Part shown: positions 25,534 to 61,352 of the stretch, piece after piece
How the letters are laid out: every line of letters starts with the position of its first letter
Numbering within the stretch: the first letter of the stretch is position 1
NCBI GenBank assembly: GCA_963838925.1
Contig: CAWISW010000003.1
Location: 128,001-192,000, forward strand
Direction of reading: 5' to 3'
DNA length: 64,000 nucleotides
From: an uncultured Nitrososphaerota archaeon
GTDB taxonomy: Archaea > Thermoproteota > Nitrososphaeria > Nitrososphaerales > Gagatemarchaeaceae
The notes under the pieces: model-generated
What the model was told of the DNA's origin: nothing
The model's input: only the letters and a program-made list of their open reading frames with translations
Database searches by the model: none
Program-made: the position numbers and the translations under genes

Positions 25534-25534
25534 C

Positions 25535-43267: not shown

Positions 43268-43308
43268 GGGTTCATTTCGCCTACGCCGGGCATTTCACAC
43301 ACACGTTG
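43268..43308 (+). repeat. cassette-boundary repeat copy 1 (degenerate)
   Basis: GGGTTCATTTCGCCTACGCCGGGCATTTCACACACACGTTG. Confidence 0.8.
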
Positions 43309-43359
43309 GACGACGGATAGCGCAACAACCCCGTCACATTCACTTGGTTTCGGACAGAG

Positions 43360-43734
43360 TCAACGTCCCTGTAGCAGGATCTCTCTAGCCTCGTTGATGT
43401 CTCTCATCTTTGCTGCCGATCCCCCCGGTCTGTCTGGGTGCCACACCATGGCCATCCTCTTGTAGGCCGCCTTGATCTCGGCCTCGGTCGCACCGACCCT
43501 GACGCCCAAGACCTGGGCGGCCCTTGGGATCTCTTTGACGGCGCCCAGGTCGAACGGATTGCGACGGTCGTCTTGGTGGTCCGGTCTTCGGCGGTTATTG
43601 TAAGGGTCTCTCTCGCGCTGCCTCCTGACCCGCTCCTCGTCGGCGCGCCATAGCTCCTCGTAGATCATTCTGCGGCGCTCCTCCGTGCGCGCCCAATCCT
43701 CTGTCTCCGTTTCCTCCTGAGCTTGCGTCCGCAT
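43360..43734 (-). CDS. protein with C-terminal DnaJ J-domain
   Basis: VLGV...A...EIK.AY...A..WHPD..GG......INEA. Confidence 0.85.
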   Translation of the reverse strand: MRTQAQEETETEDWARTEERRRMIYEELWRADEERVRRQRERDPYNNRRRPDHQDDRRNPFDLGAVKEIPRAAQVLGVRVGATEAEIKAAYKRMAMVWHPDRPGGSAAKMRDINEAREILLQGR

Positions 43735-43992
43735 CGGGAAGGTTTGGCGTTGTGCTGGTATTTAAGCCGCCGATTCGTTGTCCTTAGAGTCACCGAAGGA
43801 ATTTCTTGCGATGACGCTGGAATTCATGTTACTGCTCGGGAGAGTTCATTCCAACGCGGCCGAGAAAGATTCTGATCTGGAGGCGGCCCGAATCCCGGCC
43901 ATGGCAGGAAGAAGTGAAAGACCAAGATGTTCGACGAGGGCTAGCAAATGTCAATAAGGTCCTGATTCCGCACGTGGTGGAAGGGAGAAACA

Positions 43993-44721
43993 CTGGCTAC
44001 GGAGAAAGTAGTCTTTGTAAGAGTCAAACTGGAGGAAAGAGTTGCACAAAACGTACTTTCCAGATTGAATGATATTCCCGAGCTCGTAACTATCAATCGA
44101 GTTCGACAGACTGAGCTGTATAACATCTTCTTCCGAGTCACGGATGATTCTATTGAATCATTGCGCTCGAGACTCAAAGCTACAGGTGTCAAAGTTAGAG
44201 AGTTCGTCGTAATTGCCGAAAGTAGGAAATTGGGAAGCTCCTTCGATAGGACTGTCTTTCAATTCAAACAGGTGTCGTATGCCCTCGTTGGAGATAGGGT
44301 ATCAGGAGACGAACAACCGCAATTCAGACTTAGCGAGAATAGATTGGCGATAATTACTAGAGAGTTAAAGAGCTTAGAATTGGATTGGATTTCCGACAGG
44401 CTTGAGTCCAGTTGGTTGATGAGTCACATGATACTGCAAACTCAAGAAAAGAACAGCGCGCTGCCAAACGCTACTGATTTCCTCTTTCGAAGTCTATCTT
44501 CGCTATACGAGTCCTTCATTTCACAAGCTCTCGTCGACATGGGAGAGATGTTCGGTAACCTGGATGAAGCTAATGAGAAGAGATTCTTCAATGAATACAA
44601 TGAATTGACGCTCGAATTGCGCGACTTTGTTGAAATGAGGAGGGCCTACGTCAATGCAGCTGACGAACAGGGGTTACGCAATTCTTACGTAAGATCGCTT
44701 TCAGCGAACAGGAGAGGATAA
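43993..44721 (+). CDS. hypothetical protein with possible AsnC/ACT-like N-terminal domain (CTG start at 43993 inferred; ORF track starts at 44065)
   Basis: Frame open from 43966; AAGGGAG precedes the CTG; stop overlaps the next ATG. Confidence 0.6.
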   Translation: MATEKVVFVRVKLEERVAQNVLSRLNDIPELVTINRVRQTELYNIFFRVTDDSIESLRSRLKATGVKVREFVVIAESRKLGSSFDRTVFQFKQVSYALVGDRVSGDEQPQFRLSENRLAIITRELKSLELDWISDRLESSWLMSHMILQTQEKNSALPNATDFLFRSLSSLYESFISQALVDMGEMFGNLDEANEKRFFNEYNELTLELRDFVEMRRAYVNAADEQGLRNSYVRSLSANRRG

Positions 44722-45380
44722 TGACCGTCAAGAAAGCTTGGTTGGGAGGCGACTTGAAACACTTACGCGTATTGGTGAGAAATGAATCAGTTGACGCAGC
44801 GCATTACTTCACTTTTCCTGCCGAGAGGGGTCGAACCAAACTGGACGATGTTGAACCTGTCCAACGAGGAAGACTAAGGCTTCCAGGTCGAAGCTTCACT
44901 ATTATGTTATCCCGTCTTCATTACCTAGGTTTGGTCATATGGATCGACCCTAAGATTCACGAAAGAGATGGTTCGCTCAGACCTTTGTGCAGATTTGCAT
45001 TGAGTGTGCATACTCCATGCATCGATATGGGAGAGAAATCCAAAGTTTGGGAAAAGAAGGACGTCGCGGACGCGGAAAAAACCAGCGGGTTCCAAAGAGC
45101 GCAATTTTGGTTGGCCCTGCGTCTATTTGACCTCTTATACTGGATAACAAGTGATCCTTCGCTTAAGGAATATCCAAATGTGTTTGAGGAGCGCGAGGGC
45201 GTTGGATTCGAATCAATTCAATTGTTTGATAGGAAGTCCATTGTGAATCAGACCAGGTACTTGCTGTTTGTTTGTCAAGACTCGGACTTAAATCTGGTCA
45301 AGGAGTTCACGAAGACATCGCCAGATTCGATGGAGAAAAGAGAACTTGAGGACTTCTTGCTCAAGCTCGGAATCCCATAG
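44721..45380 (+). CDS. hypothetical protein, translationally coupled to the upstream gene
   Basis: TAATG overlap; 219 aa. Confidence 0.65.
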   Translation: MTVKKAWLGGDLKHLRVLVRNESVDAAHYFTFPAERGRTKLDDVEPVQRGRLRLPGRSFTIMLSRLHYLGLVIWIDPKIHERDGSLRPLCRFALSVHTPCIDMGEKSKVWEKKDVADAEKTSGFQRAQFWLALRLFDLLYWITSDPSLKEYPNVFEEREGVGFESIQLFDRKSIVNQTRYLLFVCQDSDLNLVKEFTKTSPDSMEKRELEDFLLKLGIP

Positions 45381-45608
45381 CTCAAGACGCGCACTTGTCG
45401 GCCGATGAATTGTGTCGGGGTGTAATTTGGAGTATCCCTTAGAGAGGTATTGGTCGGGCGAGGTAGAATCATGTAAGAATAGCGCCCAGTAACCCAGTGG
45501 GTTCGATCTACTGCACTCTGGTTCCAGACCGTCCTAGTTCCAGTTTCTCAGGAGATCTTCTCCGCAACCGCGGGATACTTTCGGGTGGCTTCGCTTTCTA
45601 TTGAATTC

Positions 45609-45655
45609 AGGGCTTGTAGCCATACTCAGGGTTCATTGCGCCTCCGCCGTGGCAT
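45609..45655 (+). repeat. cassette-boundary repeat copy 2
   Basis: AGGGCTTGTAGCCATACTCAGGGTTCATTGCGCCTCCGCCGTGGCAT. Confidence 0.9.
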
Positions 45656-45706
45656 ATCTTCCTCCGTCAATCGGCTCGAAAATTCGCAGAAGAGGTTGAA
45701 TCCAAT

Positions 45707-48700
45707 TCATAGTTTGGTAGGTGCGAGTTGCAGGTGGCAAGCTATTCTCGGAAAATCCTTCTTGTCAATCGCAAGGATAACTCCTTGCCCAAGCTTTTGC
45801 AAGATAGCCATGACGGCGCATGCAGATCTATAATCCATCAGAAGTCTGGCCTCTACGTTTGCTTGGTCCTCCAGATTCACCTCGAAAACGCCCTTGGGCA
45901 AGAGACGTTCGCAAGATCTCTTGACTTTCTGCGATTCTATAGAAATTGGTAGAATCTCATTCTCGTCCTTGAATTGGTTTAGACTGAAAATTGCTCTTGA
46001 CGGAGAAGATAGCTTAACGCAGTCTGGGGAGATGAACCTCGAGTGAGCCAAGTTAGCTCTTATGATGAATTCGATTGAATCACGCATGAAGGCATAGAGT
46101 TCCCCTTCTTGCTGTGGGCCTATTGGCTTCTCATGAGAAGCTCGCGTATCTTGACGCTCAAATCCTACAGAAAGATATCCGTACAGACGATCTTCGCTCC
46201 ATCCCGGAAAGAGAAACGAGAATATCCTGTTCCAGTTCTTCCTTCCTTCGGGAGAATTTGTCTTTCCGGTCATAATGAGTTTGTACTCTCCCCGATTCAC
46301 GCCTTCGAACTCATTGGCAACAGTGAGTCCGTTTTGCTCGGCCTCCTGAAGTTTCGATACTATATGTTGCCGGATATTTGGATCAACGTGTTCTATGCGA
46401 TTGGTCCTGCCTCCGTAGTACATGGTGAAAGCATTGAAAAGAAACATTCTCAGCTTTCTCTCCACGTATTTCGTTATTCTGGAGTTTATCTGATCATAAC
46501 GTGGCCAGATGAGGAACTCTTTCAAAAGGTCCCGACACTCGTGGAATAACTCGATTTCTTCGTTTGTGAGGCCTGTAATCGGGATTATGAGGCGTTTTTT
46601 TCCTTCGTACTCGTCCTTGAAGAACTGTATTATTATCGAAAAGGAATCATGATAGTAGGCAACCAACTGCTTCGCGAAGTCCTTCGGTCTGCCTTCGTCT
46701 GCGATGAGTTTCTCTGTGTCTAGGAACTTTGTAACGGCTTCCGGTGAACTCCAAAAGTCCTTCCAGAAGTAGATTGTCGCGAGGTCATCATCCGTAGTTG
46801 GGCTAAGTCCTTCGAAGACCCGATATGCTCTTGTTAGAGATGCAAGAGATGAGACGCAATTCTTAGCAAGCTCCCATTCCTGCCCGCTCGAGAGTTGCGC
46901 GTCTTCATGTCGAAGAATGTCCAAGTGGAATCGTTTTGCCTCCTCCAGGAAGACAGATAGTGGACTTGGGGCTTGGGGAAGAATGGAATCAATGAAATCG
47001 ACTTCGAGGTTCTTTGGTTTCGCTTGCTCCTTTTTCTCGCCGTAGAGTTTCGGAATGTAGTAGTCAATCGTCAAGTCGTATTTTCGTTTCGTTTGCTCAC
47101 TAAGTACTACCAATGGCTTCGATATGTAGAAAATGGGCTCGTTCTTCCAAGTTCTGAAGACGAGGCCGGCATTCTCAAGGTACCACATGCGTTTTGCCAT
47201 TGAAGAGTCCTTCTTCAATTCCGAGTCCGTGATCCCTTTCTCGACGTATACATCAGCAAGCAAATTCAAACACTCGTCGCGCTGACTTGGCTTGAGATTC
47301 ATACCAGTCATTAGACGTCGGATTGGTCTTATGACAAGAGGATTTGACTCTATTATCGCTCTTATCTCGTTCAACGTGCTTGCGGGTACAATCAATTCGG
47401 GTTCGCCGTTTTCGTACGCAAGGGCGACCTGACGCAGAACCTCGCGAATTGTGAAGAAGTCGGGAGTGCGTTCGCGCTTTATCTTAAAGAAGACTTTCTC
47501 GATGAACTTGGTGTTTACTTTGACCGGATTGTCCGGATTCTTGGAAAATGCTCTCAATCTTCGATTCACAACGTCGAGTGCCCAATCTATTTCCAACGGA
47601 GGCATTGGCTCTGCACGCTCTATCGAGCCCGAAAACTGTGGATTGTTGACTATTCGTCCATACAAATCGTTCGAGGATTCCACGTAGAAGCATATTGAGT
47701 TCATTCCGGTATTCCGTTTGAGTTCTCGCGTCAAACTCTGAAGATCACTCAAGAATTGCACGGCCACATCCAAGTCTCCCTTGTGAAGGTCTTCTACGAA
47801 GATGACAAGTCCCTTGACGCTACTTGTTCGTGCGAGCGATGAGATTATTTTTTCAATGCTCTCCATCTTATCATTCGGATTCAATTCAGTAAGGAAGACG
47901 CCATGAACTCGCGCCACATCTAGCAGTTTGTTGTAGAGTTGTCTCGTGCAATCATAGTTGACCGTCTCTATATCGTGTGCGGTGCTCACGGAGAGATAGA
48001 TTGCCATCGCTCTTTCACGATAGAGTTTGGAGCCGAGATACTCAAAGAAGGTGGATTTTCCAGAGCCATAGAGCCCATAGACGAGAGTGTTCCCGAATAG
48101 CTTGTCTGGATGCTTCTCCAATAGAGAGAGATACTTGATAAAGATTGGAGTTTCGTGAATGATTTGATCATACATGTCTGGGTGAAAATTCGAAATCCCG
48201 ACTGTGTTCGGAGGGAATGGGTCTTGGGTGAGTCCCCTTTGTTCCCACCATTCAACTTCTTCTTCTTGTTCCGACTTGGCGATTTCGGCTTCATCTAGTA
48301 CAGGATTGTCTAAAGAGTCCAAAATTGAGCTGACTTCTTCCCTCCTGAGGAGAATCTCTTCGTCGAGCGCCTTGAGCTCATCACTCTTGGCCTTGAGTGC
48401 CCGTTCCCCGGCTTCCTTCTCTAGTTCTTCCAATATCTCGTGTTTCTTCTCCTCGTCTTCAAGCACTTTCCGATTTACGAGATGCTCGAGTTTGGGAGAC
48501 TCCACCCTTAGTCTCAGTTTGTCTCGAAAGAAGTCTTTGTTCTGCACATTGTCTCGAAAGAATGGAAGTATCAGTATCCTATCAAGTTCTTCTGACGATT
48601 TGATTTGAGAGCTCTCAATCATCAACGAAAGCGCGGTTTCCGCGATTTCCCTGTCTCTTGGTGGGGAGAGTTTCGCGTAATTGAGAAAGAAATCCTGCCT

Positions 48701-48793
48701 TACTTCCTTGAAGTTATCCTTCGGGAATGGGTCTAATCGGAACCATTTTGAGTATCTGACTATGAATTCTCGAATAGCCTCCCTGCGATCCAT
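45707..48793 (-). CDS. large P-loop NTPase with putative C-terminal Swt1-like HEPN domain
   Basis: GL..DPF, GLYGSGKST Walker A, IFVEDLH Walker B; C-terminal VE.KLR.F and R-x6-H (RQDTRASH). Confidence 0.65.
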   Translation of the reverse strand: MDRREAIREFIVRYSKWFRLDPFPKDNFKEVRQDFFLNYAKLSPPRDREIAETALSLMIESSQIKSSEELDRILILPFFRDNVQNKDFFRDKLRLRVESPKLEHLVNRKVLEDEEKKHEILEELEKEAGERALKAKSDELKALDEEILLRREEVSSILDSLDNPVLDEAEIAKSEQEEEVEWWEQRGLTQDPFPPNTVGISNFHPDMYDQIIHETPIFIKYLSLLEKHPDKLFGNTLVYGLYGSGKSTFFEYLGSKLYRERAMAIYLSVSTAHDIETVNYDCTRQLYNKLLDVARVHGVFLTELNPNDKMESIEKIISSLARTSSVKGLVIFVEDLHKGDLDVAVQFLSDLQSLTRELKRNTGMNSICFYVESSNDLYGRIVNNPQFSGSIERAEPMPPLEIDWALDVVNRRLRAFSKNPDNPVKVNTKFIEKVFFKIKRERTPDFFTIREVLRQVALAYENGEPELIVPASTLNEIRAIIESNPLVIRPIRRLMTGMNLKPSQRDECLNLLADVYVEKGITDSELKKDSSMAKRMWYLENAGLVFRTWKNEPIFYISKPLVVLSEQTKRKYDLTIDYYIPKLYGEKKEQAKPKNLEVDFIDSILPQAPSPLSVFLEEAKRFHLDILRHEDAQLSSGQEWELAKNCVSSLASLTRAYRVFEGLSPTTDDDLATIYFWKDFWSSPEAVTKFLDTEKLIADEGRPKDFAKQLVAYYHDSFSIIIQFFKDEYEGKKRLIIPITGLTNEEIELFHECRDLLKEFLIWPRYDQINSRITKYVERKLRMFLFNAFTMYYGGRTNRIEHVDPNIRQHIVSKLQEAEQNGLTVANEFEGVNRGEYKLIMTGKTNSPEGRKNWNRIFSFLFPGWSEDRLYGYLSVGFERQDTRASHEKPIGPQQEGELYAFMRDSIEFIIRANLAHSRFISPDCVKLSSPSRAIFSLNQFKDENEILPISIESQKVKRSCERLLPKGVFEVNLEDQANVEARLLMDYRSACAVMAILQKLGQGVILAIDKKDFPRIACHLQLAPTKL

Positions 48794-48895
48794 TATGATG
48801 TCATGTAGTTAGCCTATGTATAAATTCATCAAAGAGCGACCAGAACTCCATGAAGTCAGCATAATATCCAATCCGTAGTGGCTCCGCATGTACAA

Positions 48896-48967
48896 AGGAT
48901 CAATTGCCTCCGCCGGGGCATTTCACTCACACGTTGAGCTATAGGCGGTTAACGGGGCTCAACTAGT
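48896..48967 (+). repeat. cassette-boundary repeat copy 3 (degenerate left arm)
   Basis: AGGATCAATTGCCTCCGCCGGGGCATTTCACTCACACGTTGAGCTATAGGCGGTTAACGGGGCTCAACTAGT. Confidence 0.9.
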
Positions 48968-49003
48968 TAGGAGCTCTGAATAAGTCTGGAAGTGAACGAA
49001 TGG

Positions 49004-49816
49004 TTAATGATTTGACAAGAACTCACTTCTCTTCACAATCTCTAATAGTTTGTCTTTGGTGTCTAGTACATCCTCCAGCGAAGAAGGGCTGAGCGCAATA
49101 TCCAGACCTTGATGGGAAACCTCGTTCCTCAATTCAACGAACCGCTCTGTCAATCGATCATAATCATACCTGTCTAGACCAAGCTTCTGACGCCAATCTG
49201 GATCGTCCTTGATTGCGTGAAAGATCTCGCCCAAACCAAAGCATTCTATCTTCCTGAGTTCTGAATCTTTCTTCTGTCTTTCACTGAAATAGTATTCGAT
49301 TTTGCCGCTCTCGCTTTTCGTAAGTTTACTCATCCAATAGACATCGTTATGGGCCTCTTTCATGGCAGAAAGAAGGTTACTTTCCATCTGGCCGAATAGA
49401 AGATACAACAGTAACCTGACGGGTCGCTTGTCGAAATCAGAATAGGTGACTAGGCCGCAAATCTCATTTTGCTCCAGGACATAGAGAAATTTACTGTTGA
49501 TGATTTTCTTTAGGCCTATGATCACAGGAGTTGACGAGCTGATGAGCTTTGAGTAATGTATATCATGGCAAATATGTTCAAGAGACTTCTCAGAGTCGAG
49601 TTCTTTCTTCAATTCCTCTCTTAATACATACCCCTTGAATTGTTTAGTAGAAGCGTCCATAACTGGTGCTTGGTCGTAGTTTTCTTTGTCGAGCTTATCG
49701 CATACTTCCCGCTTGCTGTGGTTAGAAGCCGGGGCATAAAGGTCGCGAAGAGGCGTCATTATGGCAAGGACAGTAATTTGACCAGTCAAATGGGAATAGT
49801 ATTCTTGGAAAGCCAC
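49004..49816 (-). CDS. CBS-domain + HEPN (RxxxxH) protein
   Basis: IMTP...YDQAPV...GYV and GLVTYSD CBS features; C-terminal ELRNEVSH. Confidence 0.75.
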   Translation of the reverse strand: MAFQEYYSHLTGQITVLAIMTPLRDLYAPASNHSKREVCDKLDKENYDQAPVMDASTKQFKGYVLREELKKELDSEKSLEHICHDIHYSKLISSSTPVIIGLKKIINSKFLYVLEQNEICGLVTYSDFDKRPVRLLLYLLFGQMESNLLSAMKEAHNDVYWMSKLTKSESGKIEYYFSERQKKDSELRKIECFGLGEIFHAIKDDPDWRQKLGLDRYDYDRLTERFVELRNEVSHQGLDIALSPSSLEDVLDTKDKLLEIVKRSEFLSNH

Positions 49817-49890
49817 CTGACCTAGCTCACAATCAACTGATGAAGATTCTTGTAGATGAACGTTATCATTTGATATGCGTGGAAAGTATG

Positions 49891-49923
49891 GTCGCCATAC
49901 ATAGGGTTCATTGCGCCTCCGCC
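49891..49923 (+). repeat. cassette-boundary repeat copy 4 (left arm + spacer only)
   Basis: GTCGCCATACATAGGGTTCATTGCGCCTCCGCC, then the match ends. Confidence 0.9.
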
Positions 49924-49932
49924 TGATGCGGT

Positions 49933-50241
49933 CTAAGTAGTTCCGTCGGTATACCAGCCATCAGGGGAGCCCGCGAAGTTCTCCGGACACGTGGTCACGC
50001 GGCCGAGCCTGAACTGGAGCCAGACCTTGTCCGCCCTCCTCGTTATCTTGACTACCTCGCCCTCCCAGGACTTCACCGGGGTCCTCATCTCCTTGTCCAC
50101 CTTGACGAAGACCGCCTGCGTGTGGTCCGCCAGCCTCTCGGGGTTCATCACGCCGCCGCGGAGCATTTCGTAAGGGTAAGAGGAGACGTTGCCTACCTTG
50201 TCCCAGTGGTTCGAACGGCTGGTAATCAGGACGTATCTCAA
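49933..50241 (-). CDS. hypothetical protein
   Basis: 102 aa, GC-rich codon usage. Confidence 0.6.
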   Translation of the reverse strand: MRYVLITSRSNHWDKVGNVSSYPYEMLRGGVMNPERLADHTQAVFVKVDKEMRTPVKSWEGEVVKITRRADKVWLQFRLGRVTTCPENFAGSPDGWYTDGTT

Positions 50242-50292
50242 GGCGAGCGTGCCGATGTGGTCGATCAGGTAGATAACGCTTCGAGACAGTCC

Positions 50293-51126: not shown

Positions 51127-51198
51127 GCGCGCCAGATCGTGGAGCGCTGCCCGACCTTAAACCAACCGACCAGACACGCGCCTCCGAAGAAGTTTTAG

Positions 51199-51267
51199 GC
51201 CACGTATAGGGTTCATTGCGCCTCCGCCGGGGGGGGTTCAATCGCACGTTGAGCCATAGGTAGTGGA
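51199..51267 (+). repeat. cassette-boundary repeat copy 5
   Basis: GCCACGTATAGGGTTCATTGCGCCTCCGCCGGGGGGGGTTCAATCGCACGTTGAGCCATAGGTAGTGGA. Confidence 0.9.
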
Positions 51268-51322
51268 TTGAAGAGTTTGTTCGGCCTAACTTTGACTAGG
51301 AAGCATAACGGTTCTGTTCAAT

Positions 51323-52489: not shown

Positions 52490-52492
52490 ATT

Positions 52493-52554: not shown

Positions 52555-52555
52555 T

Positions 52556-52699
52556 ATGATGCAGAAAATCATGGTGAGCATGAGCGACGAAATGGTGAAG
52601 GCCCTCGAATCCGAGCGGAAGGCGAGGAAGGCGGACAGCATACCAGAGACGGTGAGGGCGGTTCTGGGGGAATACTTCAAGACAAAGGCAAGCGGGTAA
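52556..52699 (+). CDS. ribbon-helix-helix (CopG-like) protein, 47 aa
   Basis: Read manually: MMQKIMVSMSDEMVKALESERKARKADSIPETVRAVLGEYFKTKASG. Confidence 0.75.
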   Translation: MMQKIMVSMSDEMVKALESERKARKADSIPETVRAVLGEYFKTKASG

Positions 52700-52775
52700 T
52701 CTACCGCGTGGGGCGCGTCCTATTCTTCATTGGGCTGGGAGCAATCTGCATCGGTTGGCTCCCGCTCATATCTGG

Positions 52776-53636: not shown

Positions 53637-53774
53637 CGAGCTTTGTCCAGCCTCTTAACAGGGTTGCGCGTGTCCAGAGGATTGAACAGAACCAGCATAA
53701 CCTACCCACAGAAGGCTTTTATGTAGCGCCGTTCTTTCGGGTCACTACCAACTGCTCGCCTTCGTAGCAGTCGG

Positions 53775-54668
53775 ATGCTAAATTCCAGAAATCTGACGCC
53801 GTCGAAGGACAATGTTTCGGATGCCCGGAGCGGTGAGAGTCGTCTATATCCAATCGAATCAGCGAATTGGCATCTTACGGATCGCTGTAACTACTCCTGC
53901 AAATTCTGCTTCATGAAGGAGCTTCTTGGAGCAGAAGCTGACTTGGCCGGAGGAAGAGAAATCATCGCAGCACTCGCCAAGATGGGAATCACTAAACTGA
54001 ACTTCGTCGGCGGGGAACCATTGCTGCATCCAAATCTGAAAGACTTCGCCGCGATAGCAAGAATCAGTGGTATGACGGTGAGCATCGTCACAAACGCGTC
54101 CCTGCTTTCAAGAGCCAAACTTTTGGATTTAAGGCCGTTTGTCGACTGGATTGGGGTATCCATCGACTCCAGCCGAGAGGTCGTGGAATCTGCTCTCGGC
54201 AGAGGTCACGGGAACCACGTAGAGAATGCAGTCCGAGTTTGCCGCTCGATCAAGAGAGAGGGAATCAAGCTAAAAATCAACACGGTTGTTACCAAACTGA
54301 ATTTCGAGGAGGATATGTGCCCTCTGATTGCTGAACTAAGCCCACTTAGGTGGAAGGTTTTCCAAATGTTGGTAATAACGGGTCAAAATGAGGAACACAT
54401 GGGCAGACTAGCACCATCTAGTCAAGAATTTGAAATATTCAAACGAATTAACCGTGAAGTCAAATTGGAATCGGGTCAACTTCCAACCTTTGAGACGAGC
54501 GACGATATGGTCGATTCGTATCTCATATTGGCACCGGATGGAAGTATAATCCAGAATAGTAACCACCGATATAGGTTCATTCCACTGCAAACAGTTGTCA
54601 ACTCCGGACTCTCAGGAATCGTCAGCCAGAAGGCGTATCAAGCCCGTGGTGCGAGATATGAATGGTAG
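53775..54668 (+). CDS. prokaryotic viperin (pVip) radical-SAM antiviral enzyme
   Basis: NWHLT.RCNY.CKFCF, KLNF.GGEP, SIVTN.S, SIDS, KINTVV, RWKVFQ, M.DSY, C-terminal RG..Y.W. Confidence 0.88.
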   Translation: MLNSRNLTPSKDNVSDARSGESRLYPIESANWHLTDRCNYSCKFCFMKELLGAEADLAGGREIIAALAKMGITKLNFVGGEPLLHPNLKDFAAIARISGMTVSIVTNASLLSRAKLLDLRPFVDWIGVSIDSSREVVESALGRGHGNHVENAVRVCRSIKREGIKLKINTVVTKLNFEEDMCPLIAELSPLRWKVFQMLVITGQNEEHMGRLAPSSQEFEIFKRINREVKLESGQLPTFETSDDMVDSYLILAPDGSIIQNSNHRYRFIPLQTVVNSGLSGIVSQKAYQARGARYEW

Positions 54669-54738
54669 CCACTTTGAAAAGGGGCGCACTGAGTTGGCCA
54701 TCCAAGGTCAACAGGCTGAGTTCTAGCGGAGGCGACTG

Positions 54739-57438
54739 ATGATGCCATTCAAGATGTATGTCTGCGGAGAGCTCCAATTCCCCCGAGAGAAGCGTCACAT
54801 GAATGTCATGCTAAAGAATCTTAGTGACAAGTACAAGGACTCTCCCAATGACTGCACTGTGTTCATAGCCGGGACAATTCTGCTTCAACTCGACGACGGT
54901 ACTCGCGTTCAGCAGGAAGTCGACGTGATCGTTCTGAAGGACAACCGAATAATAATCCTTGAACTCAAGAACATTTCAGGCGACATTATAGCCGACTGTT
55001 CCTACTACTCCCCCTGGCTAGCCGACGGAATGGCTTTCATTATGAAGGAGAAGACCGTCAACCCCTATGTTCAGGTGCGAAGAGAAAGAAGCGTCTTAAA
55101 TCAATACCTTTCTGGTTACATTCTCCAAAGTCTCATTGAGAAGGAACGAATGAGATCCAGAGAGGAAGAAGAGAGAGTCAGGGTAGTGATTGGCAGAAAG
55201 ATTTCGGCATGGGTTGTGACTAACGCCCCCTCTAGGATAAGCGTCGTCAATCTGCCTCCTGAGGGGTACAGCTGGTTCAATGCAATACCGGTGAATCAGG
55301 TTGCAGACGCTCTCATGATTGAGGGGGAAAGTGATGGTCTTCTTACTCAGAATCAACTGGAGTATTTTGCGACCAGCCTCAGAGCACGACCTTGCACCCT
55401 ATCGGACTGGTTAATGAGAGCTCCCCAGCGAGAGGAGACCCGAAAGAAGGGCTATTCGAGGCTAGGCGTTGTGGACAGCCTCTTCGAATTGGGGCGAGAT
55501 GAAGAAGCTATGAGTGCGCTTCGTTACGTCAGGGAACTTAGGCTTTATGCGTACTTGAACGAAGTAGGAACTTGCTTTCATTTCCAAAGTCCCCAGATAA
55601 GAAAATTGGCTCTGATTATCCTGATCGAATGGAGCGTAGAAGGTCTAGGAAGCCTCCTCAGCGAAGCTCTTGTGGACGATGATGCGGCTGTGAGGTCGCT
55701 GTCCCTCTCTTGGTTGAAGGACGTGAGCTACCCGGAGGCCTTCGACGCCCTGTGCGAGATTGTGAAAAGAGGTTATTCTTCCGACTTCGAAGCCGCGCTC
55801 AGGGCTATTGAAATCTCCAGAGCGGGAAAGGAGTGCGATTTCGTATTCAACCTAGCGCAGGAGAAGATATGGGGATCGCCGTTTGCGAATTACACGAGGC
55901 TCAGAGCACTCGAGACCAAGCAGCGAGAATACCGCTGGGCCGTGTATGACAAGAAGGATGAATCTGCCCAGAAGCTGGTCGAGGAGTACGAAAGACTCGA
56001 AGCTGACTTTGGATCTTATCTGAAATTATTCGGTTTGCTCTGCGGGACGCTCGGAAGACTACGGTGCAGTCGCGCAGTTCCCGCGTTGATAGAAACAATG
56101 AGAACTCCAGAAAAACTTGGGTTGGCCGGCGTGCCATGGAACAAGCCAACTTGGGAGCAGGAGGATTCGAGTTTCGATTATTACGGAATATTCAGTATAG
56201 TGGTTTCAGCGCTAGGGGAGATAGGCAACCACGATGCAACCAAGCCGCTCATAGAATGCCTTCATGATGCCCCTGAAGACTGGCAGGCTGCGACCATTGA
56301 TGCGCTCGGAGTCCTGCGTGACGGCGAAGCTGTGAATGATATCAAGGTCTTCCTGTCAAGCGAGATTCATGGCAGGAGAGAGACCGCATTCAGAGCGCTT
56401 TCCGTCATTGGCACCGATGAAGCATATCGGGCAATGATGGACTATTACCTCGGCGCCCTAAGCGATCCCAATGAGGAAAGAAGGCACGAGGTCTACAGTA
56501 TGGAGCACCAGCTGGAACTGAACAACAGAAGCAAGTTTGAGGAATCGATCATCAACCTGCTACGGGACAAAGGATTCCCTGGCCATGAGAAGGGTTTCTT
56601 GAACGCCCTGGGTTCGATTGCCACGACGAAATCAATCGATTCTTTGTTCTCCTTCAGCTCGGACCCAGATAATTACGAGCAGGCTGGGTCCATCCTCTCG
56701 CGAGTCTTGACGCCAGAGGCGAGCGACAGGGCGAGAGCGCTCCTGGCCTCTCAGAACCCGATCGAAGTCGCCTTCGCCATCTACGCCCTATGGACGCGCT
56801 CCAGCGAGGGCTACGTCAAGCTTCAGGACTTCGAGTCGAGTCCGAGTGCCGACGTAAGGAGGGCTGTTGCCTACATGTACTATCGGCGAAAAGATAGGAT
56901 GAGACTGAGGCGGTTTGCGAACGATGAGGACAATGAAGTGAAGTACGCGGTTTTCAGTACTTTTCGCGACGCTGGCAAGGCAACTCTCGAGCGCAATCTG
57001 ACCGCGACATCTGAGCAGTGCAGGAGAGGATACCTCGTGCGCACCGAGGAAGCTCTTGTTATCACTCAGGGGAATCAGATAACAATTGCTTCTCCAGAAG
57101 ATATTCGAGTCGTTTTGGTTACCAAACATGTGGATGAGATCGGTCTGTACCTTGTAGTTCAACAAGGTGTCTTGTACAGGAGTTTCCTTGTAGCGCCTTC
57201 CAGAGAGGATTCCAGAGATGACGATGTGAATGCGAAGAGAACTGAGGACTTCTACTACGCTGTCTTGGACCTCACGAGGCGGACATTTTGGCAAGAGCCT
57301 GAGGTTGAAGAGCAAAGAGCAATCTCAAGAATGTGGGACAGAATAATGGAAAAAAGAAAGTCTCGAGCTGCTTCCGAGGCAGCAAGAAATCGAGACGAGA
57401 CTTCCGATGATGAGCAGAGAGAGGAAGGTTTTCTTTGA
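54739..57438 (+). CDS. NERD nuclease domain + HEAT-repeat protein
   Basis: EVDVIVL.....IILELKNISG.I...W...NPY.Q NERD motif; repeated ALG.IG...A..PL HEAT units. Confidence 0.85.
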   Translation: MMPFKMYVCGELQFPREKRHMNVMLKNLSDKYKDSPNDCTVFIAGTILLQLDDGTRVQQEVDVIVLKDNRIIILELKNISGDIIADCSYYSPWLADGMAFIMKEKTVNPYVQVRRERSVLNQYLSGYILQSLIEKERMRSREEEERVRVVIGRKISAWVVTNAPSRISVVNLPPEGYSWFNAIPVNQVADALMIEGESDGLLTQNQLEYFATSLRARPCTLSDWLMRAPQREETRKKGYSRLGVVDSLFELGRDEEAMSALRYVRELRLYAYLNEVGTCFHFQSPQIRKLALIILIEWSVEGLGSLLSEALVDDDAAVRSLSLSWLKDVSYPEAFDALCEIVKRGYSSDFEAALRAIEISRAGKECDFVFNLAQEKIWGSPFANYTRLRALETKQREYRWAVYDKKDESAQKLVEEYERLEADFGSYLKLFGLLCGTLGRLRCSRAVPALIETMRTPEKLGLAGVPWNKPTWEQEDSSFDYYGIFSIVVSALGEIGNHDATKPLIECLHDAPEDWQAATIDALGVLRDGEAVNDIKVFLSSEIHGRRETAFRALSVIGTDEAYRAMMDYYLGALSDPNEERRHEVYSMEHQLELNNRSKFEESIINLLRDKGFPGHEKGFLNALGSIATTKSIDSLFSFSSDPDNYEQAGSILSRVLTPEASDRARALLASQNPIEVAFAIYALWTRSSEGYVKLQDFESSPSADVRRAVAYMYYRRKDRMRLRRFANDEDNEVKYAVFSTFRDAGKATLERNLTATSEQCRRGYLVRTEEALVITQGNQITIASPEDIRVVLVTKHVDEIGLYLVVQQGVLYRSFLVAPSREDSRDDDVNAKRTEDFYYAVLDLTRRTFWQEPEVEEQRAISRMWDRIMEKRKSRAASEAARNRDETSDDEQREEGFL

Positions 57439-57467
57439 CAATTCAAGATCTTTTCAAACAGAATTAC

Positions 57468-57545
57468 TTCGTTGCGCCTCCGCCGGGGCATTTCACTCAC
57501 ACGTTGAGCTATAGGTAGTGGACGGGCTGAACTAGTCGCCCGAAG
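57468..57545 (+). repeat. cassette-boundary repeat copy 6
   Basis: 57472-57545 is identical over 74 bp to copy 7 (58600-58673). Confidence 0.95.
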
Positions 57546-57617
57546 GCTTCTAGCGTACACCCCCACCCCTTCAACGCGATCTTACGCCGCGCAGGGTCAA
57601 GTCCCCTGGGGAGGCCC

Positions 57618-58523
57618 CTACGAGTAGCGTTTGAACTCCCGTAGGTATCGCCTGAAGAACCAGCTCGTAAAGACGCGCTCTTCCTTGCCGAGCTGCGAGC
57701 GCTCGAGCGCGTTGTAGTACGCGCCTCTGTTCTTGTACTCGATGTTGAGCATGGGATAGCCGGACTTGTGCAAGGCGAAGTTCATCATCAGCCTGCTGAC
57801 CCTGCCGTTCCCATCCCCGAACGGATGGATCGTCACAAACTTGAGGTGGACGAGCGCTGCCAGCTCCACCGGATGGATCCTCGCCTTGTCCCGGTCATAC
57901 CACCTGAAGAAATCGGCGAGCATTGGTTGCAGCTCGACCGGAGATGGAGGGACGTACCTGCTCCCCGCGATCCCGACTCCGCTCTTCCGGACACGTCCCG
58001 CTATATCGGGCTTGGTGTTCTTGAAGAGCCCCCAGTGCCAGCCAAGCACGAGCTGGAGCGAGAGGCTCTTGGTGGACCCGAGCATCTCGAAGAACACCCT
58101 TTGGTGCGCCTCTGCCTCCTTGACGTCTTCGACGGGCTTCCCGCCGGGGCTAATTCCCTCCTCCAACAGCTGCGCGGTCTCTCTGAGGCTCAGCGTCGAG
58201 CCCTCGATCCTCTGGGTGTCGTAAGTGAATTTGACCGAGAAAGTCCGCAGCTCCTTCTTTCTCGTCGACTCTGGATATGTCCGTAGCGCAGCGCGGTAGT
58301 TCTTCTTTATGCCGTCAAACTTGTCGAACCACTTCTCCTTGTCGAGTTCGAACACAAACCGCCTTTTGATCTCGTCGATGTCTTTCGGTATCGCTCTTCC
58401 CAGGTACTTTGACTTTTGGCTGAATCGGTCCTTGTCTCTGATCGTGTGCTCCAAGTAGTAGTACGTGACTCCCTTTACTCTCCGCTTCACTATGGTGGTC
58501 ACGGGACTGTTTATTATCAACAC
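57618..58523 (-). CDS. Fic-domain protein
   Basis: TQRIEGST and HPFGDGNGRVSR motifs. Confidence 0.93.
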   Translation of the reverse strand: MLIINSPVTTIVKRRVKGVTYYYLEHTIRDKDRFSQKSKYLGRAIPKDIDEIKRRFVFELDKEKWFDKFDGIKKNYRAALRTYPESTRKKELRTFSVKFTYDTQRIEGSTLSLRETAQLLEEGISPGGKPVEDVKEAEAHQRVFFEMLGSTKSLSLQLVLGWHWGLFKNTKPDIAGRVRKSGVGIAGSRYVPPSPVELQPMLADFFRWYDRDKARIHPVELAALVHLKFVTIHPFGDGNGRVSRLMMNFALHKSGYPMLNIEYKNRGAYYNALERSQLGKEERVFTSWFFRRYLREFKRYS

Positions 58524-58591
58524 ATATTGATAAGCTTTTACATTATGTATGCAATGTGCTGATAACTACGCGCGCTGAAAGGAGTGCTGCA

Positions 58592-58673
58592 AGGGTTCAT
58601 TGCGCCTCCGCCGGGGCATTTCACTCACACGTTGAGCTATAGGTAGTGGACGGGCTGAACTAGTCGCCCGAAG
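58592..58673 (+). repeat. cassette-boundary repeat copy 7 (consensus-like)
   Basis: AGGGTTCATTGCGCCTCCGCCGGGGCATTTCACTCACACGTTGAGCTATAGGTAGTGGACGGGCTGAACTAGTCGCCCGAAG. Confidence 0.95.
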
Positions 58674-58678
58674 CGGTC

Positions 58679-58945
58679 TCATCTCGTCCGGTAGACGCGG
58701 TCGTGGTGCTCATAGTCCTCCAGTACCACAGTCTTCCTTGCCTCGTCGATCGAGAACATCAGGACGTAGTTGCCGATGTGGACCCGCCTCTTGCCCGTGA
58801 GAGGAAAGCGGAGGGGCTTGTACGCGTGCGGGTCAGCGACTATCTCCTCGATCTTCTTCGCTATCGCTTCCATCTGCTTGCTGTCTTTCTTGGCTAGCTT
58901 CTTGAACGCCCTGTCCAGGTGCTCCCTGATTTCGACTTCATACAT
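58679..58945 (-). CDS. RelE/ParE-family toxin
   Basis: MY.V......R.FKKL...KPLR..L.G.RRVHIG.YVL...HHD.VY. Confidence 0.88.
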   Translation of the reverse strand: MYEVEIREHLDRAFKKLAKKDSKQMEAIAKKIEEIVADPHAYKPLRFPLTGKRRVHIGNYVLMFSIDEARKTVVLEDYEHHDRVYRTR

Positions 58946-59188
58946 TCACTTCAATCCGTACCTCTTCCGTAGTTCCCCAGCAGTCCCGACCCTGATTATC
59001 CGCTCCTTCTGGATCTCCATGAGCCTCCGTATGTACTCCGGCCTGAACTCGGATTCCAGGACGATCTTCCTGTACTCCTTGGCCAGCTTGTTGATGGCCT
59101 GGGACTTGTCCCTCAAGCCAAATTGTGCCTTGAGGATGTTGATGACCTTGTTGGCCTCTTCGTCGATGTCCACAATAGCCTTGACCAT
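58946..59188 (-). CDS. antitoxin (DUF2683-like)
   Basis: MVKA.VDI.EEAN.VINI.KA..GL.DKSQAI...RPEY; directly upstream of the toxin. Confidence 0.8.
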   Translation of the reverse strand: MVKAIVDIDEEANKVINILKAQFGLRDKSQAINKLAKEYRKIVLESEFRPEYIRRLMEIQKERIIRVGTAGELRKRYGLK

Positions 59189-59219
59189 ATTAACATGGTA
59201 TTAATACGCCAATATTAAG
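59188..59219 (-). promoter_or_regulatory. TA promoter/operator
   Basis: CTTAATATT TATA-like box at 59211-59219; perfect palindrome GTATTAATAC at 59198-59207; three TATTAA repeats. Confidence 0.55.
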
Positions 59220-59239
59220 CGTTGGGATTCGCAGTGCAT

Positions 59240-59272
59240 AGGGGTTCGCGCCTCCGCCGGGGCATTTTCTCA
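59240..59272 (+). repeat. cassette-boundary repeat copy 8 (3-nt deletion in left arm)
   Basis: AGGGGTTCGCGCCTCCGCCGGGGCATTTTCTCA. Confidence 0.88.
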
Positions 59273-59313
59273 ATTGCATGACCAACCTCGGATTAGTCTG
59301 AACCGTCTAAGCA

Positions 59314-60555
59314 ATGCTCAAATCAAGACGCCGCCGAGACTCCGATATGGATGAAGATTGGAAGGTCGCCAAGGGCACTGCCCTTGAAGACATTGTCGCT
59401 GAACTGCTACGAGGTTGGGGTTTTGACACCCAGACTCGAGTTCGAGCAAAGGACAAGTCGGAAGTCGAACACGAGATTGACGTCCTAGGGAAGAAACATG
59501 AGGCGTTCGGCGAGGTTATTTTGGCTGTCGAGTGCAAGAATCACTCCACACCAATCGACATAAAGGAAATCCGCAATTTCAGGGACAAGCTCAATTCATT
59601 GGGGTACACCAAGGGGCTATTCATTTCCAACAAGGGCTTCACTCCGCCTGCCCTGCAATATGCCAAGAGTGTAGGGATAGAGACCTGGGACGGGACCCAA
59701 CTTGACGCAAACATAGGCAAATCGAACACACAAGCGAATACAATTCCAGACGCGATCGAGCCATCTGCTAACTTCGAGGAGAGAATGATTCCCCACCTAG
59801 AGAACTCGTCCAAACTCAAAGTCTCAGATTTGATTGTTCAATATTCGCCTTACTACTTTTTGACTTACCATTGCTTTACCCAACAATGGGTCAACTATCA
59901 ATTGACCAACCTTGAGAGCAAGGGCCTTGTCGTCGTAGATGGCACAACAGGAGCGATGGCAGACTACTCAGTGGAGTCAGGTGTTGTCGGATCAATTACT
60001 CAGACTGGGAACTTCGCGAGCTGCGACTCGTCTCCGGTTCACGACATTGCCGAACAAGAGTTGAAGAGACGATTCCAAGAGGTCAAAATCACCAAAGCGC
60101 GAATCAAGGAGTCCGAGGTGAGACAGATGGTTCAACTGGAGCTTGCGAAGAGCATCTGGCAGACTTACTCCTACCAAACCGGAAAAGGGAGTTACGTCAG
60201 AGACGAGACCAAGACAATCAGGCCTAAGGTCTCTGAAGTCGGAATAACGTCGGCAAGGCTTGCCAATGTGCCCGTAGTGACTCTCACGCTCGGATACGGC
60301 GGCCGGAAATACACCAGGACGATTCAAGCGGGGACAATAAGGATGATAACAGATGACTTTTGGTTCTGCAATGTCGACCCTACGGACAGGAAACGCCCAA
60401 AACTACTTTGTGACGAGTGCGGGAGTCTGGCATGTGAAGATCATGGCCGGCCTTGCTTTTCCTGCGGAAGGCAGCTTTGTATCGACCACATCATCTCGAA
60501 AGGCCTCCTCCAGAAGAAATTCTATTGCAAGGATCACGTTCCTAGAAAGGTCTAA
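59314..60555 (+). CDS. Mrr-like restriction endonuclease with C-terminal Zn-binding domain
   Basis: G..LE..V..LL...GF, EIDVL, VECKN, GFT..A; C-terminal CxxC/CxxH clusters. Confidence 0.85.
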   Translation: MLKSRRRRDSDMDEDWKVAKGTALEDIVAELLRGWGFDTQTRVRAKDKSEVEHEIDVLGKKHEAFGEVILAVECKNHSTPIDIKEIRNFRDKLNSLGYTKGLFISNKGFTPPALQYAKSVGIETWDGTQLDANIGKSNTQANTIPDAIEPSANFEERMIPHLENSSKLKVSDLIVQYSPYYFLTYHCFTQQWVNYQLTNLESKGLVVVDGTTGAMADYSVESGVVGSITQTGNFASCDSSPVHDIAEQELKRRFQEVKITKARIKESEVRQMVQLELAKSIWQTYSYQTGKGSYVRDETKTIRPKVSEVGITSARLANVPVVTLTLGYGGRKYTRTIQAGTIRMITDDFWFCNVDPTDRKRPKLLCDECGSLACEDHGRPCFSCGRQLCIDHIISKGLLQKKFYCKDHVPRKV

Positions 60556-60575
60556 GGTTCTCATCGCCGAAGTGT

Positions 60576-60684
60576 GCGAGTTCCGCTAAGCTTTGTCTAA
60601 AATGAAAGTACGCAAGGGCTTGTCGCCATGCACAGGGTTCATTGCGCCTCCGCCGGAGCGGTTCACTCGCTCGTTGAGCTATAG
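60576..60684 (+). repeat. cassette-boundary repeat copy 9 (long left flank)
   Basis: GCGAGTTCCGCTAAG...CTAAAATGAAAGTACGCAAGGGCTTGTCGCCATGCACAGGGTTCATTGCGCCTCCGCCGGAGCGGTTCACTCGCTCGTTGAGCTATAG. Confidence 0.95.
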
Positions 60685-60692
60685 CTTAGTAT

Positions 60693-60911
60693 TCAGGAGG
60701 TGATGACTTGCGCTTCGCCCTTCGCCATCGCTTGGACCATCATTGGCACGACCTTGCTGGCGTTGAGGACCTCGAAGAAAAGAGGCTTGCCCTTCGAGTC
60801 CACGTGCATCACCACGTCGCCGACCTCCTCTGCGTGGGACAGCTTCCCCTTCTCCTTGAGAAGCACCAGCAGCACATCGGCATCTGAGTCGTACTTCAGC
60901 TTATAGGCCAT
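60693..60911 (-). CDS. DUF2283-family antitoxin-like protein
   Basis: KYD.DADVL.V......HAEE.GDV...D..G....E.LNAS. Confidence 0.85.
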   Translation of the reverse strand: MAYKLKYDSDADVLLVLLKEKGKLSHAEEVGDVVMHVDSKGKPLFFEVLNASKVVPMMVQAMAKGEAQVITS

Positions 60912-61146
60912 GGTCCTTTCTCTTCACGGGATAGAAGGTTATCACAACTATAATGCCTTTGCGCTCTTCATGGACCACCCGCAGCGCGAACTTGCCATCC
61001 AAGACCTTGGTCGAGATGGTCTGCGGGCCTCTGTTCTCTGTCTTGTCGGGCGCCGTTATCGCCCCTGTCACCTGATCTTGGGTAAGCGTGAAGCCGAAGG
61101 TCCGGAGCAGGCCAAACTTCTCTGTGGCATGCTTGGTGAATCTCAT
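60901..61146 (-). CDS. DUF4258-family (RelE/BrnT-fold) toxin-like protein
   Basis: FTKHA.E...I..PD...LRVV.E.....VVITFYP. Confidence 0.82.
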   Translation of the reverse strand: MRFTKHATEKFGLLRTFGFTLTQDQVTGAITAPDKTENRGPQTISTKVLDGKFALRVVHEERKGIIVVITFYPVKRKDHGL

Positions 61147-61220
61147 GTTTGCCAGAGATGCTCGATGACGCTTTCATTGTCACCGAGCTTTAAGTCGATG
61201 CTCTCTCATCTAGAAAATGC

Positions 61221-61352
61221 GCGAGCTCCGCTAGGGTTCGCTAAAATGAAAGTACGCAAGGGCATTGCCATACACAGGGTTCATTGCGCCTCCGCCGGGG
61301 CATTTCATTCACACGTTGAGCTATAGATAGTGGAAGGGCTGAACTGGCACCC
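61221..61352 (+). repeat. cassette-boundary repeat copy 10 (longest, both flanks)
   Basis: GCGAGCTCCGCTAGGG...CTAAAATGAAAGTACGCAAGGGCATTGCCATACACAGGGTTCATTGCGCCTCCGCCGGGGCATTTCATTCACACGTTGAGCTATAGATAGTGGAAGGGCTGAACTGGCACCC. Confidence 0.95.

Follow-up and report, generated by a model that had tools for sequence, protein, structure and literature searches.

The textbook case of cassette capture is the integron. To our knowledge, all known integrons, archaeal ones included, use the integrase IntI and attC sites. Staphylococcal cassette chromosome (SCC) elements sit at the 3′ end of rlmH in staphylococci and use Ccr serine recombinases, and pdif modules on Acinetobacter plasmids use XerC/D at a 28-bp site made of two 11-bp inverted arms and a 6-bp spacer, with orientations that alternate. 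The present analysis concerns a 64,000-nt stretch of DNA ('the window') from an uncultured archaeon of the family Gagatemarchaeaceae (Nitrososphaerota), in which ten direct copies of one short repeat separate small gene units. Each of these repeats reproduces, in reverse complement, the 3′ end of the organism's own 23S ribosomal RNA (rRNA) together with the adjoining 3′ trailer. Integrons of the attC/IntI type have been reported in archaeal metagenome-assembled genomes (MAGs), and their arrays are described as attC-based in the available part of that report (Sci Adv 2022, PMC9668308). The array system described here looks like an undescribed counterpart of bacterial integrons, and a new recombination system may well underlie it.

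The source genome (G000) is a 1.84-Mb assembly of three contigs with 61% GC and an estimated completeness of 87%; the window corresponds to G000:C3:128001-192000. Repeats were located with three probes of 20-21 nt, allowing up to three mismatches against a null of 100 shuffles, and with an nhmmer profile built from the ten window copies. The probes gave 7, 5 and 8 matches in the window against 0.01, 0.00 and 0.00 expected from the shuffles. A direct-repeat search and MAFFT alignment placed the copies in a single repeat family with a common 20-nt core, GGGTTCATTGCGCCTCCGCC, flanked by arms in some copies only. All ten were recovered by nhmmer with E-values of 1e-12 to 3e-28, a result that is circular by construction. 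The same profile also recovered copies that had not seeded it, namely eight further copies past the window end in the same array (array A) and 7-8 in a second one (array B). The ten copies in the window are as follows.

43248-43352, plus strand: copy 1; core 43268-43287 with 2-3 mismatches; the most distal and most degenerate copy of array A
45607-45717, plus strand: copy 2; core 45629-45648; left arm and core, right arm not conserved
48874-48978, plus strand: copy 3; core about 48896-48915, left end degenerate; core and right arm from the 23S 3′ end
49881-49991, plus strand: copy 4; core 49904-49923; left arm and core only
51185-51293, plus strand: copy 5; core 51209-51228; core and right arm
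57445-57547, plus strand: copy 6; core 57465-57484; no left arm, long right arm
58577-58674, plus strand: copy 7; core 58593-58612; 99% identical to copy 6 over 78 nt
59221-59327, plus strand: copy 8; core about 59242-59258; 3-nt deletion
60611-60721, plus strand: copy 9; core 60635-60654; full left arm, core and diverged right arm
61255-61362, plus strand: copy 10; core 61277-61296; full left arm, core and right arm

An earlier interpretation of the window, made from its letters alone and here called the sequence-only reading, had named ten copies in one orientation. All were found on the plus strand, no more than 3 nt from where it had put them. Its description of the copies as intergenic holds for all ten cores; the weakly conserved arms alone overlap the ends of a few open reading frames (ORFs). 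Its statement that the preceding 43 kb hold no copy is correct overall, apart from a weak minus-strand match at 18409-18429, which is one of the eight matches of the third probe.

The window ends inside array A, which comprises 18 copies by nhmmer, all on the plus strand, from C3:171248 to 203954 (32.7 kb). The array runs past the window to the 3′ end of the 23S rRNA gene at G000:C3:203899, equivalent to window position 75899. By Rfam, the minus strand encodes a complete 23S rRNA at C3:203899-207577; the 16S gene lies just upstream of it, and the 5S gene is unlinked from the operon, at C3:421688. Because the 3′ end of the 23S gene falls within the last repeat copy of array A, the repeat is the reverse complement of the joined 23S end and trailer start. 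The right arm corresponds to the last 20-160 nt of mature 23S rRNA, and that of copy 6 shares 98% identity with the 23S-adjacent copy across 116 nt. The left arm corresponds to the distal 3′ trailer, the outer strand of the processing stem. The core, about 24 nt in this sense, forms with the proximal left arm the 3′ strand of the 23S processing stem in co-folds of leader and trailer from G000 and two related genomes (G007 and G001), the leader-trailer duplex being predicted in all three. The element, which the sequence-only reading had taken for a novel site of its own kind, is therefore a copy of the 23S 3′ end and trailer, and the array is anchored on the rRNA operon.

The stem centre can be drawn by eye as a bulge-helix-bulge motif with a GCGC/GCGC helix, an AAU bulge on the trailer side and an AAG bulge on the leader side. 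In the drawn order, an outer helix is followed by a 3-nt bulge, a 4-bp helix and a second 3-nt bulge; the minimum-free-energy fold pairs the central bases slightly differently. Bulge-helix-bulge stems of archaeal pre-rRNA are cut by the splicing endonuclease, according to the parts of two reports that treat them (PMC7038931, PMC7714728). The ATT-GCGC of the core can thus be drawn as the trailer half of a bulge-helix-bulge that this enzyme would cut.

The 23S match of G000 spans 3679 nt against a model of 2987 positions, with non-rRNA sequence interrupting it near L025:12330 (L-numbers denote extracted loci; the 23S gene occupies L025:11899-15577). The 23S genes of relatives likewise span 3.7-4.0 kb. 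The excess length probably reflects one or more introns or insertions.

The repeat is confined to arrays. Array B contains 7-8 copies at about C3:362896-372400, all on the minus strand and 160 kb from array A, and nhmmer detected one weak singleton on contig C1 and a few marginal matches outside the two arrays. A scan of G000 with the 20-mer core at up to three mismatches gave 24 matches, of which 15 were in array A, eight in array B and one elsewhere; orientation was uniform within each array. The expectation that the repeat is not a genome-wide repetitive extragenic palindromic (REP) element therefore agrees with the 23 of 24 core matches that lie in arrays, and the search beyond 64 kb that the sequence-only reading had advised yielded the eight additional copies in array A and the whole of array B. 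The GC content of array A is 52.3%, compared with 61.0% for the genome.

Distribution of the core is largely restricted to one family. Of 24 other family genomes searched at up to three mismatches, 23 contain it, with counts ranging from one to about 80 per genome; for the genus alone the figure is 21 of 22. A single match was found among 16 genomes from 16 other families of the order, and reversed-pattern controls gave zero or one match. Ten of 80 loci examined had no nhmmer match and represent chance 20-mer matches. Among the matches listed for public records, those with the core were mostly titled Nitrososphaerales or Thaumarchaeota MAGs, and some Candidatus Gagatemarchaeum stordalenia. In G007, a single-contig genome, 36 of 40 matches lie in one 62-kb array adjoining the 23S gene (about 50 copies by nhmmer). 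G001, G015 and G018 likewise have an array that begins at the 3′ end of their 23S gene; a 23S gene was not found in G002 or G023. A search for repeats of each genome's own 23S end gave 12 matches in G000 (E ≤ 2e-5) and none within 20 kb downstream in four complete or near-complete genomes of other families (all E ≥ 0.16). Viral contigs contained no match to the core 20-mer. Carriage of the core by viruses was considered and rejected, four 17-mer matches in viral contigs stopping at 17 nt, as expected of chance.

The G007 array is interrupted by a repeat-free stretch of 15 kb (G007:C1:1546000-1561400; L031/L032) with about ten ORFs of host-like codon usage. This stretch may be a large insert or a captured piece of the chromosome.

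Conservation is concentrated in the core. Alignment of 241 copies from many genomes indicated that the arms carry almost no information. This count is circular, the copies having been picked by their core, and it was therefore repeated with copies seeded on the exact central 10-mer only. In the recount (169 copies), the flanking core positions carried 0.9-2.0 bits and positions beyond A+core+GGG no more than 0.4 bits. A sharply bounded core with decayed arms argues for a site-specific recombinase acting in trans. Individual copies consist of left arm and core, of core and right arm, or of both arms with the core, a mix that hybrid attachment sites would be expected to show. Those right arms that occur match the 23S 3′-end variant of their own genome. 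The cores are too alike for shared cassettes to place a crossover within them.

Two other readings of the core were rejected. A transfer RNA (tRNA)-derived attachment site was not supported, as ARAGORN found no tRNA in the window and Rfam nothing between 40 and 64 kb at E-values up to 1. Read in reverse, the core resembles a minus-strand promoter, Shine-Dalgarno sequence and start codon (GGAGG..ATG), but no more than nine of the 288 cassette ORFs begin there or close by, and indels between copies break the frame relative to that ATG, which counts against a role as start codon.

For comparisons between genomes, a cassette was defined as the interval between consecutive copies on the same strand, with duplicate loci and very long intervals dropped; the ORF calls within cassettes are approximate, and the relatives compared are not independent. 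The resulting 161 cassettes have a median length of 1.1 kb, in arrays of up to about 50 cassettes each. ORFs were tallied for 158 of them and numbered 288, with one ORF in 69 cassettes, two in 50 and none in nine, so that 119 of 158 hold one or two. The 288 proteins fell into 232 clusters, 199 of them singletons. The most frequent Pfam families among the first 150 of 286 cassette ORFs were PIN (10), MazE (5), ParE (4), methyltransferases (4) and glyoxalases (3). Across the family, the cargo consists mostly of toxin-antitoxin pairs, methyltransferases, glyoxalases, secreted proteins and unknowns. The view of the array as a platform for antiviral genes is thus upheld by the defence cargo in the window, but family-wide the cargo is not only antiviral.

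Cassettes behave as modules. Those that are 83-94% identical between genomes end exactly at cores and have unrelated neighbours: L053:1155-1863 matches G007 at 94% identity, bounded by cores and among unrelated neighbours, and L051:4574-5236, also core-bounded, matches a G001 contig at 83%. The Fic cassette of the window was followed through 80 metagenomic loci. Repeats flank the gene in six of six loci with at least 86% protein identity, each time with different neighbours, and in none of the 74 with 69% or less. In one of the six (L147), a DUF2283 cassette directly follows the Fic cassette with the junction at the repeat, which means that the ParE and Mrr cassettes lying between them in the window are missing there. 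G000 and G018 have only three cassette pieces in common, and these differ in their order and in how far they lie from the 23S gene; G000 and G007 have almost no cassettes in common. The J-domain piece of cassette 1 is shared with G018 at 87% nucleotide identity, and the 102-aa hypothetical of cassette 4 with G001, G018 and locus L148. The integron-like architecture proposed from the window alone is accordingly seen in the dense one-orientation sites, the units of one or two genes and the recurrence of the same cassettes in different neighbourhoods. Comparison among relatives, also advised by the sequence-only reading, revealed turnover of both content and order. None of the three findings that it had named as fatal was made: the copies are not scattered over the genome, gene order is not fixed, and the single orientation and array-bound position of the copies do not suit insertion sequence (IS) ends or miniature inverted-repeat transposable elements (MITEs).

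In L113:7129-8000, compared with the G007 array (local positions 24696-26120), a cassette tail, a repeat and the head of the same cassette occur in succession. Either the cassette, which G007 has once, is duplicated in tandem here, or this is a permuted version of it.

Derivation of the repeat from the 23S 3′ end and trailer, anchoring of the arrays on the 23S 3′ end, sharp conservation limited to the core, the confinement of copies to arrays, their spread within one family, and the modularity and turnover of the cassettes are direct observations. Integron-like accretion by recombination at an rRNA-trailer site, with the repeats as displaced copies of the 23S 3′-end attachment region, is considered their probable, though by no means assured, explanation. 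DNA segments of mostly one or two genes, each with its own copy of the core, would recombine with a resident core. Insertion beside the 23S gene would regenerate the processing site and leave ribosome biogenesis unharmed, and would for that reason be tolerated. Older cassettes would be pushed outward by newer insertions, and recombination between cores could excise, delete, duplicate or reorder cassettes. The outcome would be an integron-like store of accessory genes of foreign composition, including toxin-antitoxin pairs, restriction systems, viperin, Fic proteins, methyltransferases and many unknowns. A bolder proposal, put forward tentatively and with some doubt, is that this family independently evolved a cassette platform equivalent to the integron. 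Its universal site would be one strand of the 23S bulge-helix-bulge, so that each insertion regenerates an essential RNA-processing signal, and its recombinase would fall outside current integrase models, or its mechanism would be tied to rRNA processing itself. Such a platform would give prokaryotes a second route to gene-cassette economies, one that does not depend on attC.

A number of observations weigh against accretion at the trailer site. Array B has no neighbouring rRNA gene; a lost second rRNA operon, an inversion and a translocation are candidate origins. The Rfam 23S end in G007 lies 1.1 kb from the last copy (G007:C1:1591889-1592999, L033), even though that copy pairs with the leader and has a 23S-end arm. 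The points at which copies diverge on the right are ragged, from core position 16 to about 26. The core dyad, judged by eye, is weak (TGCGCC/GGGGCA, five of six positions) and unlike typical tyrosine-recombinase cores. Cassette genes are oriented 172 to 116, a ratio of 60:40 that excludes the single orientation of integron cassettes. No circular cassette or unambiguous excision joint was seen in four public runs of one study, whose short assembled contigs give no verdict on either. Compared with positions 43000-62900, these contigs contained joints from repeat to repeat only, with 23-59 nt on the shorter side, and many loose contig ends at repeats, as would be expected from related arrays coexisting in the community.

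The search for an enzyme adds further points of this kind. No dedicated recombinase was found at the arrays examined in G000 and G007, nor did the search of G000 beyond the window find one linked to an array. Growth by site-specific integration of circles, as originally envisaged, is accordingly no more than inferred, circles likewise not having been found. Neither end of array A or B has a recombinase among its matches, and no array or flank ORF matched a Pfam recombinase except the IS240-type DDE transposase of the IS in cassette 5. The single PF00589 match in G000, at C3:13943-14476, is 157 kb from array A, and no serine recombinase was detected in this 87% complete genome; an SSV-type integrase was not found in G000 or G007. 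The one PF00589 match of G007 adjoins a tRNA-Leu gene 31 kb past the rRNA operon and is not near a core. Candidate recombinases are tyrosine recombinases of about 430 aa, none of them array-linked in G000, where they are encoded at C3:13607-14902 and, as a divergent paralogue, at C3:436872-438206. Their relatives number 0-15 per family genome and are not syntenic, G000 and G007 included. In contigs of other genomes, several are encoded on the right of a core, at a distance of 0.2-8 kb and facing it, and the one near a core in L129 adjoins a tRNA-like gene. Location beside tRNA or tRNA-like genes, as in L129 and G007, suggests that these enzymes serve elements whose integration targets are tRNA genes. 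The family was therefore rejected as the array integrase on its variable copy number, lack of synteny and tRNA linkage where checked. A 431-aa ORF beside array B was also rejected as a recombinase, since it looks like a secreted Ser/Thr-rich protein.

The tyrosine recombinase family (about 410-505 aa; also in L062, L129, L130, L131 and L137) shares a C-terminal extension with a GWEY..LP..-type motif. The tRNA-like gene at L129:4115-4234 is 120 nt long with a 32-nt insertion in the T-arm region; it was missed by ARAGORN and matches the Rfam tmRNA model weakly.

Since no array-linked recombinase was found, homologous recombination deserves consideration, the rRNA-derived repeats of 24-200 nt serving as portable homology for RadA with no dedicated recombinase. 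Many copies do have long arms, up to 203 nt at 97.5% identity; right arms are homogenized to the 23S end of their own genome, as gene conversion would give; and the right-hand boundaries are ragged. However, most copies conserve only about 24 nt with sharp edges and arms of no more than 0.4 bits, which is short for RadA exchange; under neutral decay the core, too, ought to have worn away. Shared cassettes, moreover, end exactly at cores. Homologous recombination acting alone is for these reasons thought unlikely. Stacking of full-size, integrase-bearing elements at the 23S 3′ end, followed by decay, would make the cassettes mere remnants that are not individually mobile. The layout fits the model published for tRNA-anchored islands, which, in the part of the preprint that sets it out, has the full-length RNA gene proximal, partial copies outward and newer insertions pushing older ones (bioRxiv 10.1101/2020.12.28.424599). 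An integrase also lies to the right of a core and points to it in L129, L062, L130 and L131, and the G001 contigs C114 and C2 have the same side and orientation, as read from coordinates. Such an island is nevertheless quite improbable here: a core every 1.1 kb or so and cassettes of mostly one or two ORFs do not resemble decayed full-size elements, the same small core-bounded unit recurs in different contexts, and tblastn with two integrases against all extracted loci gave three distinct places (four loci, two on one contig). One near-core integrase, as noted, adjoins a tRNA-like gene.

The fact that the most invariant stretch coincides with the outer helix, 3-nt bulge and 4-bp central helix of the proposed motif would also suit a role at the RNA level. 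Copies in read-through transcripts of the rRNA operon would then present half a bulge-helix-bulge that pairs with the 23S leader or guides processing, with the modularity of the DNA as a by-product. Co-orientation of 172 of 288 cassette ORFs with the rRNA operon (p = 0.001, on approximate calls from non-independent relatives) points the same way. Yet the arrays contain no leader-type half-sites, opposite-strand nhmmer matches being true 23S leaders only, and it is left unexplained how cassettes come between copies. As the whole explanation this is very improbable; as a layer added to recombination, an RNA-level role of the half-motif is possible. A classical integron with IntI and attC, a MITE- or REP-type repeat and an assembly artefact share with the arrays their general look only, that of direct repeats between small gene units, and are scarcely credible. 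There is no integrase adjoining the array, no attC-like hairpin and no Rfam match for the repeat; the array-bound copies (23 of 24), none inverted, do not suit a MITE or REP; and the same structure is present in over 20 independent assemblies, one of them a single-contig genome.

Accretion at the trailer site, the explanation favoured here, can be compared with the described systems point by point. Like sedentary integrons and clusters of attC sites lacking integrases (CALINs), the arrays are long, with cassettes of mostly one or two genes each bounded by one site-like sequence; toxin-antitoxin pairs, small enzymes and unknowns dominate, and diversity is extreme with high turnover. Discrete site-bounded cassettes in varying order and context are shared with integrons in general, and the absence of an adjacent integrase from many arrays with CALINs. 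Unlike integrons, the arrays of G000 have no adjoining IntI and carry genes in both orientations, and the site is the host's own 23S 3′ end and processing stem, with the primary array abutting that gene. Folding of four copies as single-stranded DNA on both strands (200 shuffles) gave z-scores from +1.05 to -1.11, and hence no attC-like hairpin, and GTTRRRY ends were not seen by eye at the core. The folds and the missing ends bear out the earlier suggestion of a non-attC site.

Compared with SCC elements and pdif modules, the arrays are alike in having tandem composite cargo modules between short copies of one site, in systems whose recombinase comes from the element or the host; they differ in that no such enzyme or site was found here. 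They also differ from pdif in that all copies are direct and the core dyad matches at just five of six positions. Single orientation within each array and the confinement of 23 of 24 G000 copies to arrays, rather than dispersal, separate the repeat from MITEs, IS ends and REP elements. Tycheposon islands of Prochlorococcus, as presented in part of the preprint describing them, are similar in starting at the 3′ end of a full-length essential RNA gene, in the recurrence of partial gene-end copies in direct orientation, in content that varies between relatives and, in the published model, in newer insertions that push older ones outward (bioRxiv 10.1101/2020.12.28.424599). In contrast to these and other tRNA islands, the target here is the 23S trailer, repeats occur at a much higher density (about one per 1.1 kb), elements with an integrase were not seen at the proximal site in the genomes examined, and the 24-nt core is conserved without the arms. 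Like the rRNA bulge-helix-bulge, the core lies within the leader-trailer stem that flanks the 23S rRNA; that motif, in the relevant parts of the reports, is known as an RNA processing signal occurring once per rRNA (PMC7038931, PMC7714728), whereas here a strand that can be drawn as half of it is multiplied as a DNA repeat. No report of a bulge-helix-bulge multiplied as a DNA repeat between gene cassettes, and no description of such rRNA-trailer cassette arrays, was found in the literature searched. The main text of the Gagatemarchaeaceae genomics paper (PMC10640624) makes no mention of the terms integron, mobile genetic, 23S, toxin, genomic island or integrase, and that of a survey of integrated elements in Thaumarchaeota (PMC6563490) makes none of 23S or rRNA.

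An abundant archaeal family of acid soils thus has an integron-like population-genetic look, built on a site from its own rRNA processing signal. If accretion at this site is correct, it would point to an unrecognized recombination system. The arrays would also account for the location of much of these uncultured archaea's flexible genome, and the 24-nt core could serve as a sequence tag for harvesting accessory and defence genes from metagenomes. A further question, open to testing, would be in what way an rRNA operon withstands steady insertion at its 3′ end or turns it to use.

The cassettes of the window and the flank distal to them contain the following genes.

39261-43175, plus strand: distal flank; 251-aa ORF with no family match and 1052-aa DEAD-box helicase (Hachiman HamB, 7.6e-59)
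43360-45380, mixed strands: cassette 1; J-domain protein (43360-43734, minus) and hypotheticals (44065-44721 and 44721-45380, plus)
45707-48793, minus strand: cassette 2; 1028-aa AAA-type NTPase
49004-49816, minus strand: cassette 3; 270-aa protein with CBS (9e-4) and HEPN_Swt1 (3e-3) matches, both under the Pfam cut-offs
49933-51126, minus strand: cassette 4; 102-aa hypothetical and aldo-keto reductase
51323-57438, mixed strands: cassette 5; IS240-type DDE transposase (51323-52489, minus), hypothetical, pVip viperin and NERD+HEAT protein
53775-54668, plus strand: pVip viperin of cassette 5 (5.7e-68)
54739-57438, plus strand: NERD+HEAT protein of cassette 5
57618-58523, minus strand: cassette 6; Fic/SoFic protein (SoFic, 6e-29)
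58679-59188, minus strand: cassette 7; ParE-family toxin and DUF2683 partner
59314-60555, plus strand: cassette 8; Mrr-type restriction endonuclease
60693-61146, minus strand: cassette 9; DUF2283 protein and 81-aa partner (60901-61146) without a Pfam match
61414-64000, plus strand: cassette 10; type I HsdR (61414-63792), then the start of an HsdM/S fusion; continues past the window

Most of the gene labels proposed for these cassettes were confirmed by Pfam and PADLOC, including DnaJ, AAA NTPase, aldo-keto reductase, viperin, NERD+HEAT, Fic, the ParE toxin of the toxin-antitoxin pair, Mrr, DUF2283 and hsdRM. The CBS/HEPN label on 49004-49816 is weak, HEPN was not seen by these searches on the 1028-aa NTPase, and the supposed DUF4258 partner is the 81-aa protein of cassette 9. 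The Hachiman-like pair lies just outside copy 1, so the defence island reaches beyond the repeat-bounded array. The cargo of array B is of another kind, with beta-propeller and secreted-looking proteins and unknowns and not defence genes.

Over 203 nt, of which about 160 nt belong to the 23S 3′ end, the end copy of array B is 97.5% identical to the array A copy adjoining the 23S gene. A RadA/KaiC-like ATPase paralogue is encoded at G000:C3:376492-377520 (L027:4492-5520), 4 kb past the distal end of array B, probably by coincidence. The IS240-type transposase of cassette 5 (51323-52489) has a SWIM zinc finger, and a 74%-identical copy is present at G000:C2:509147-510273.

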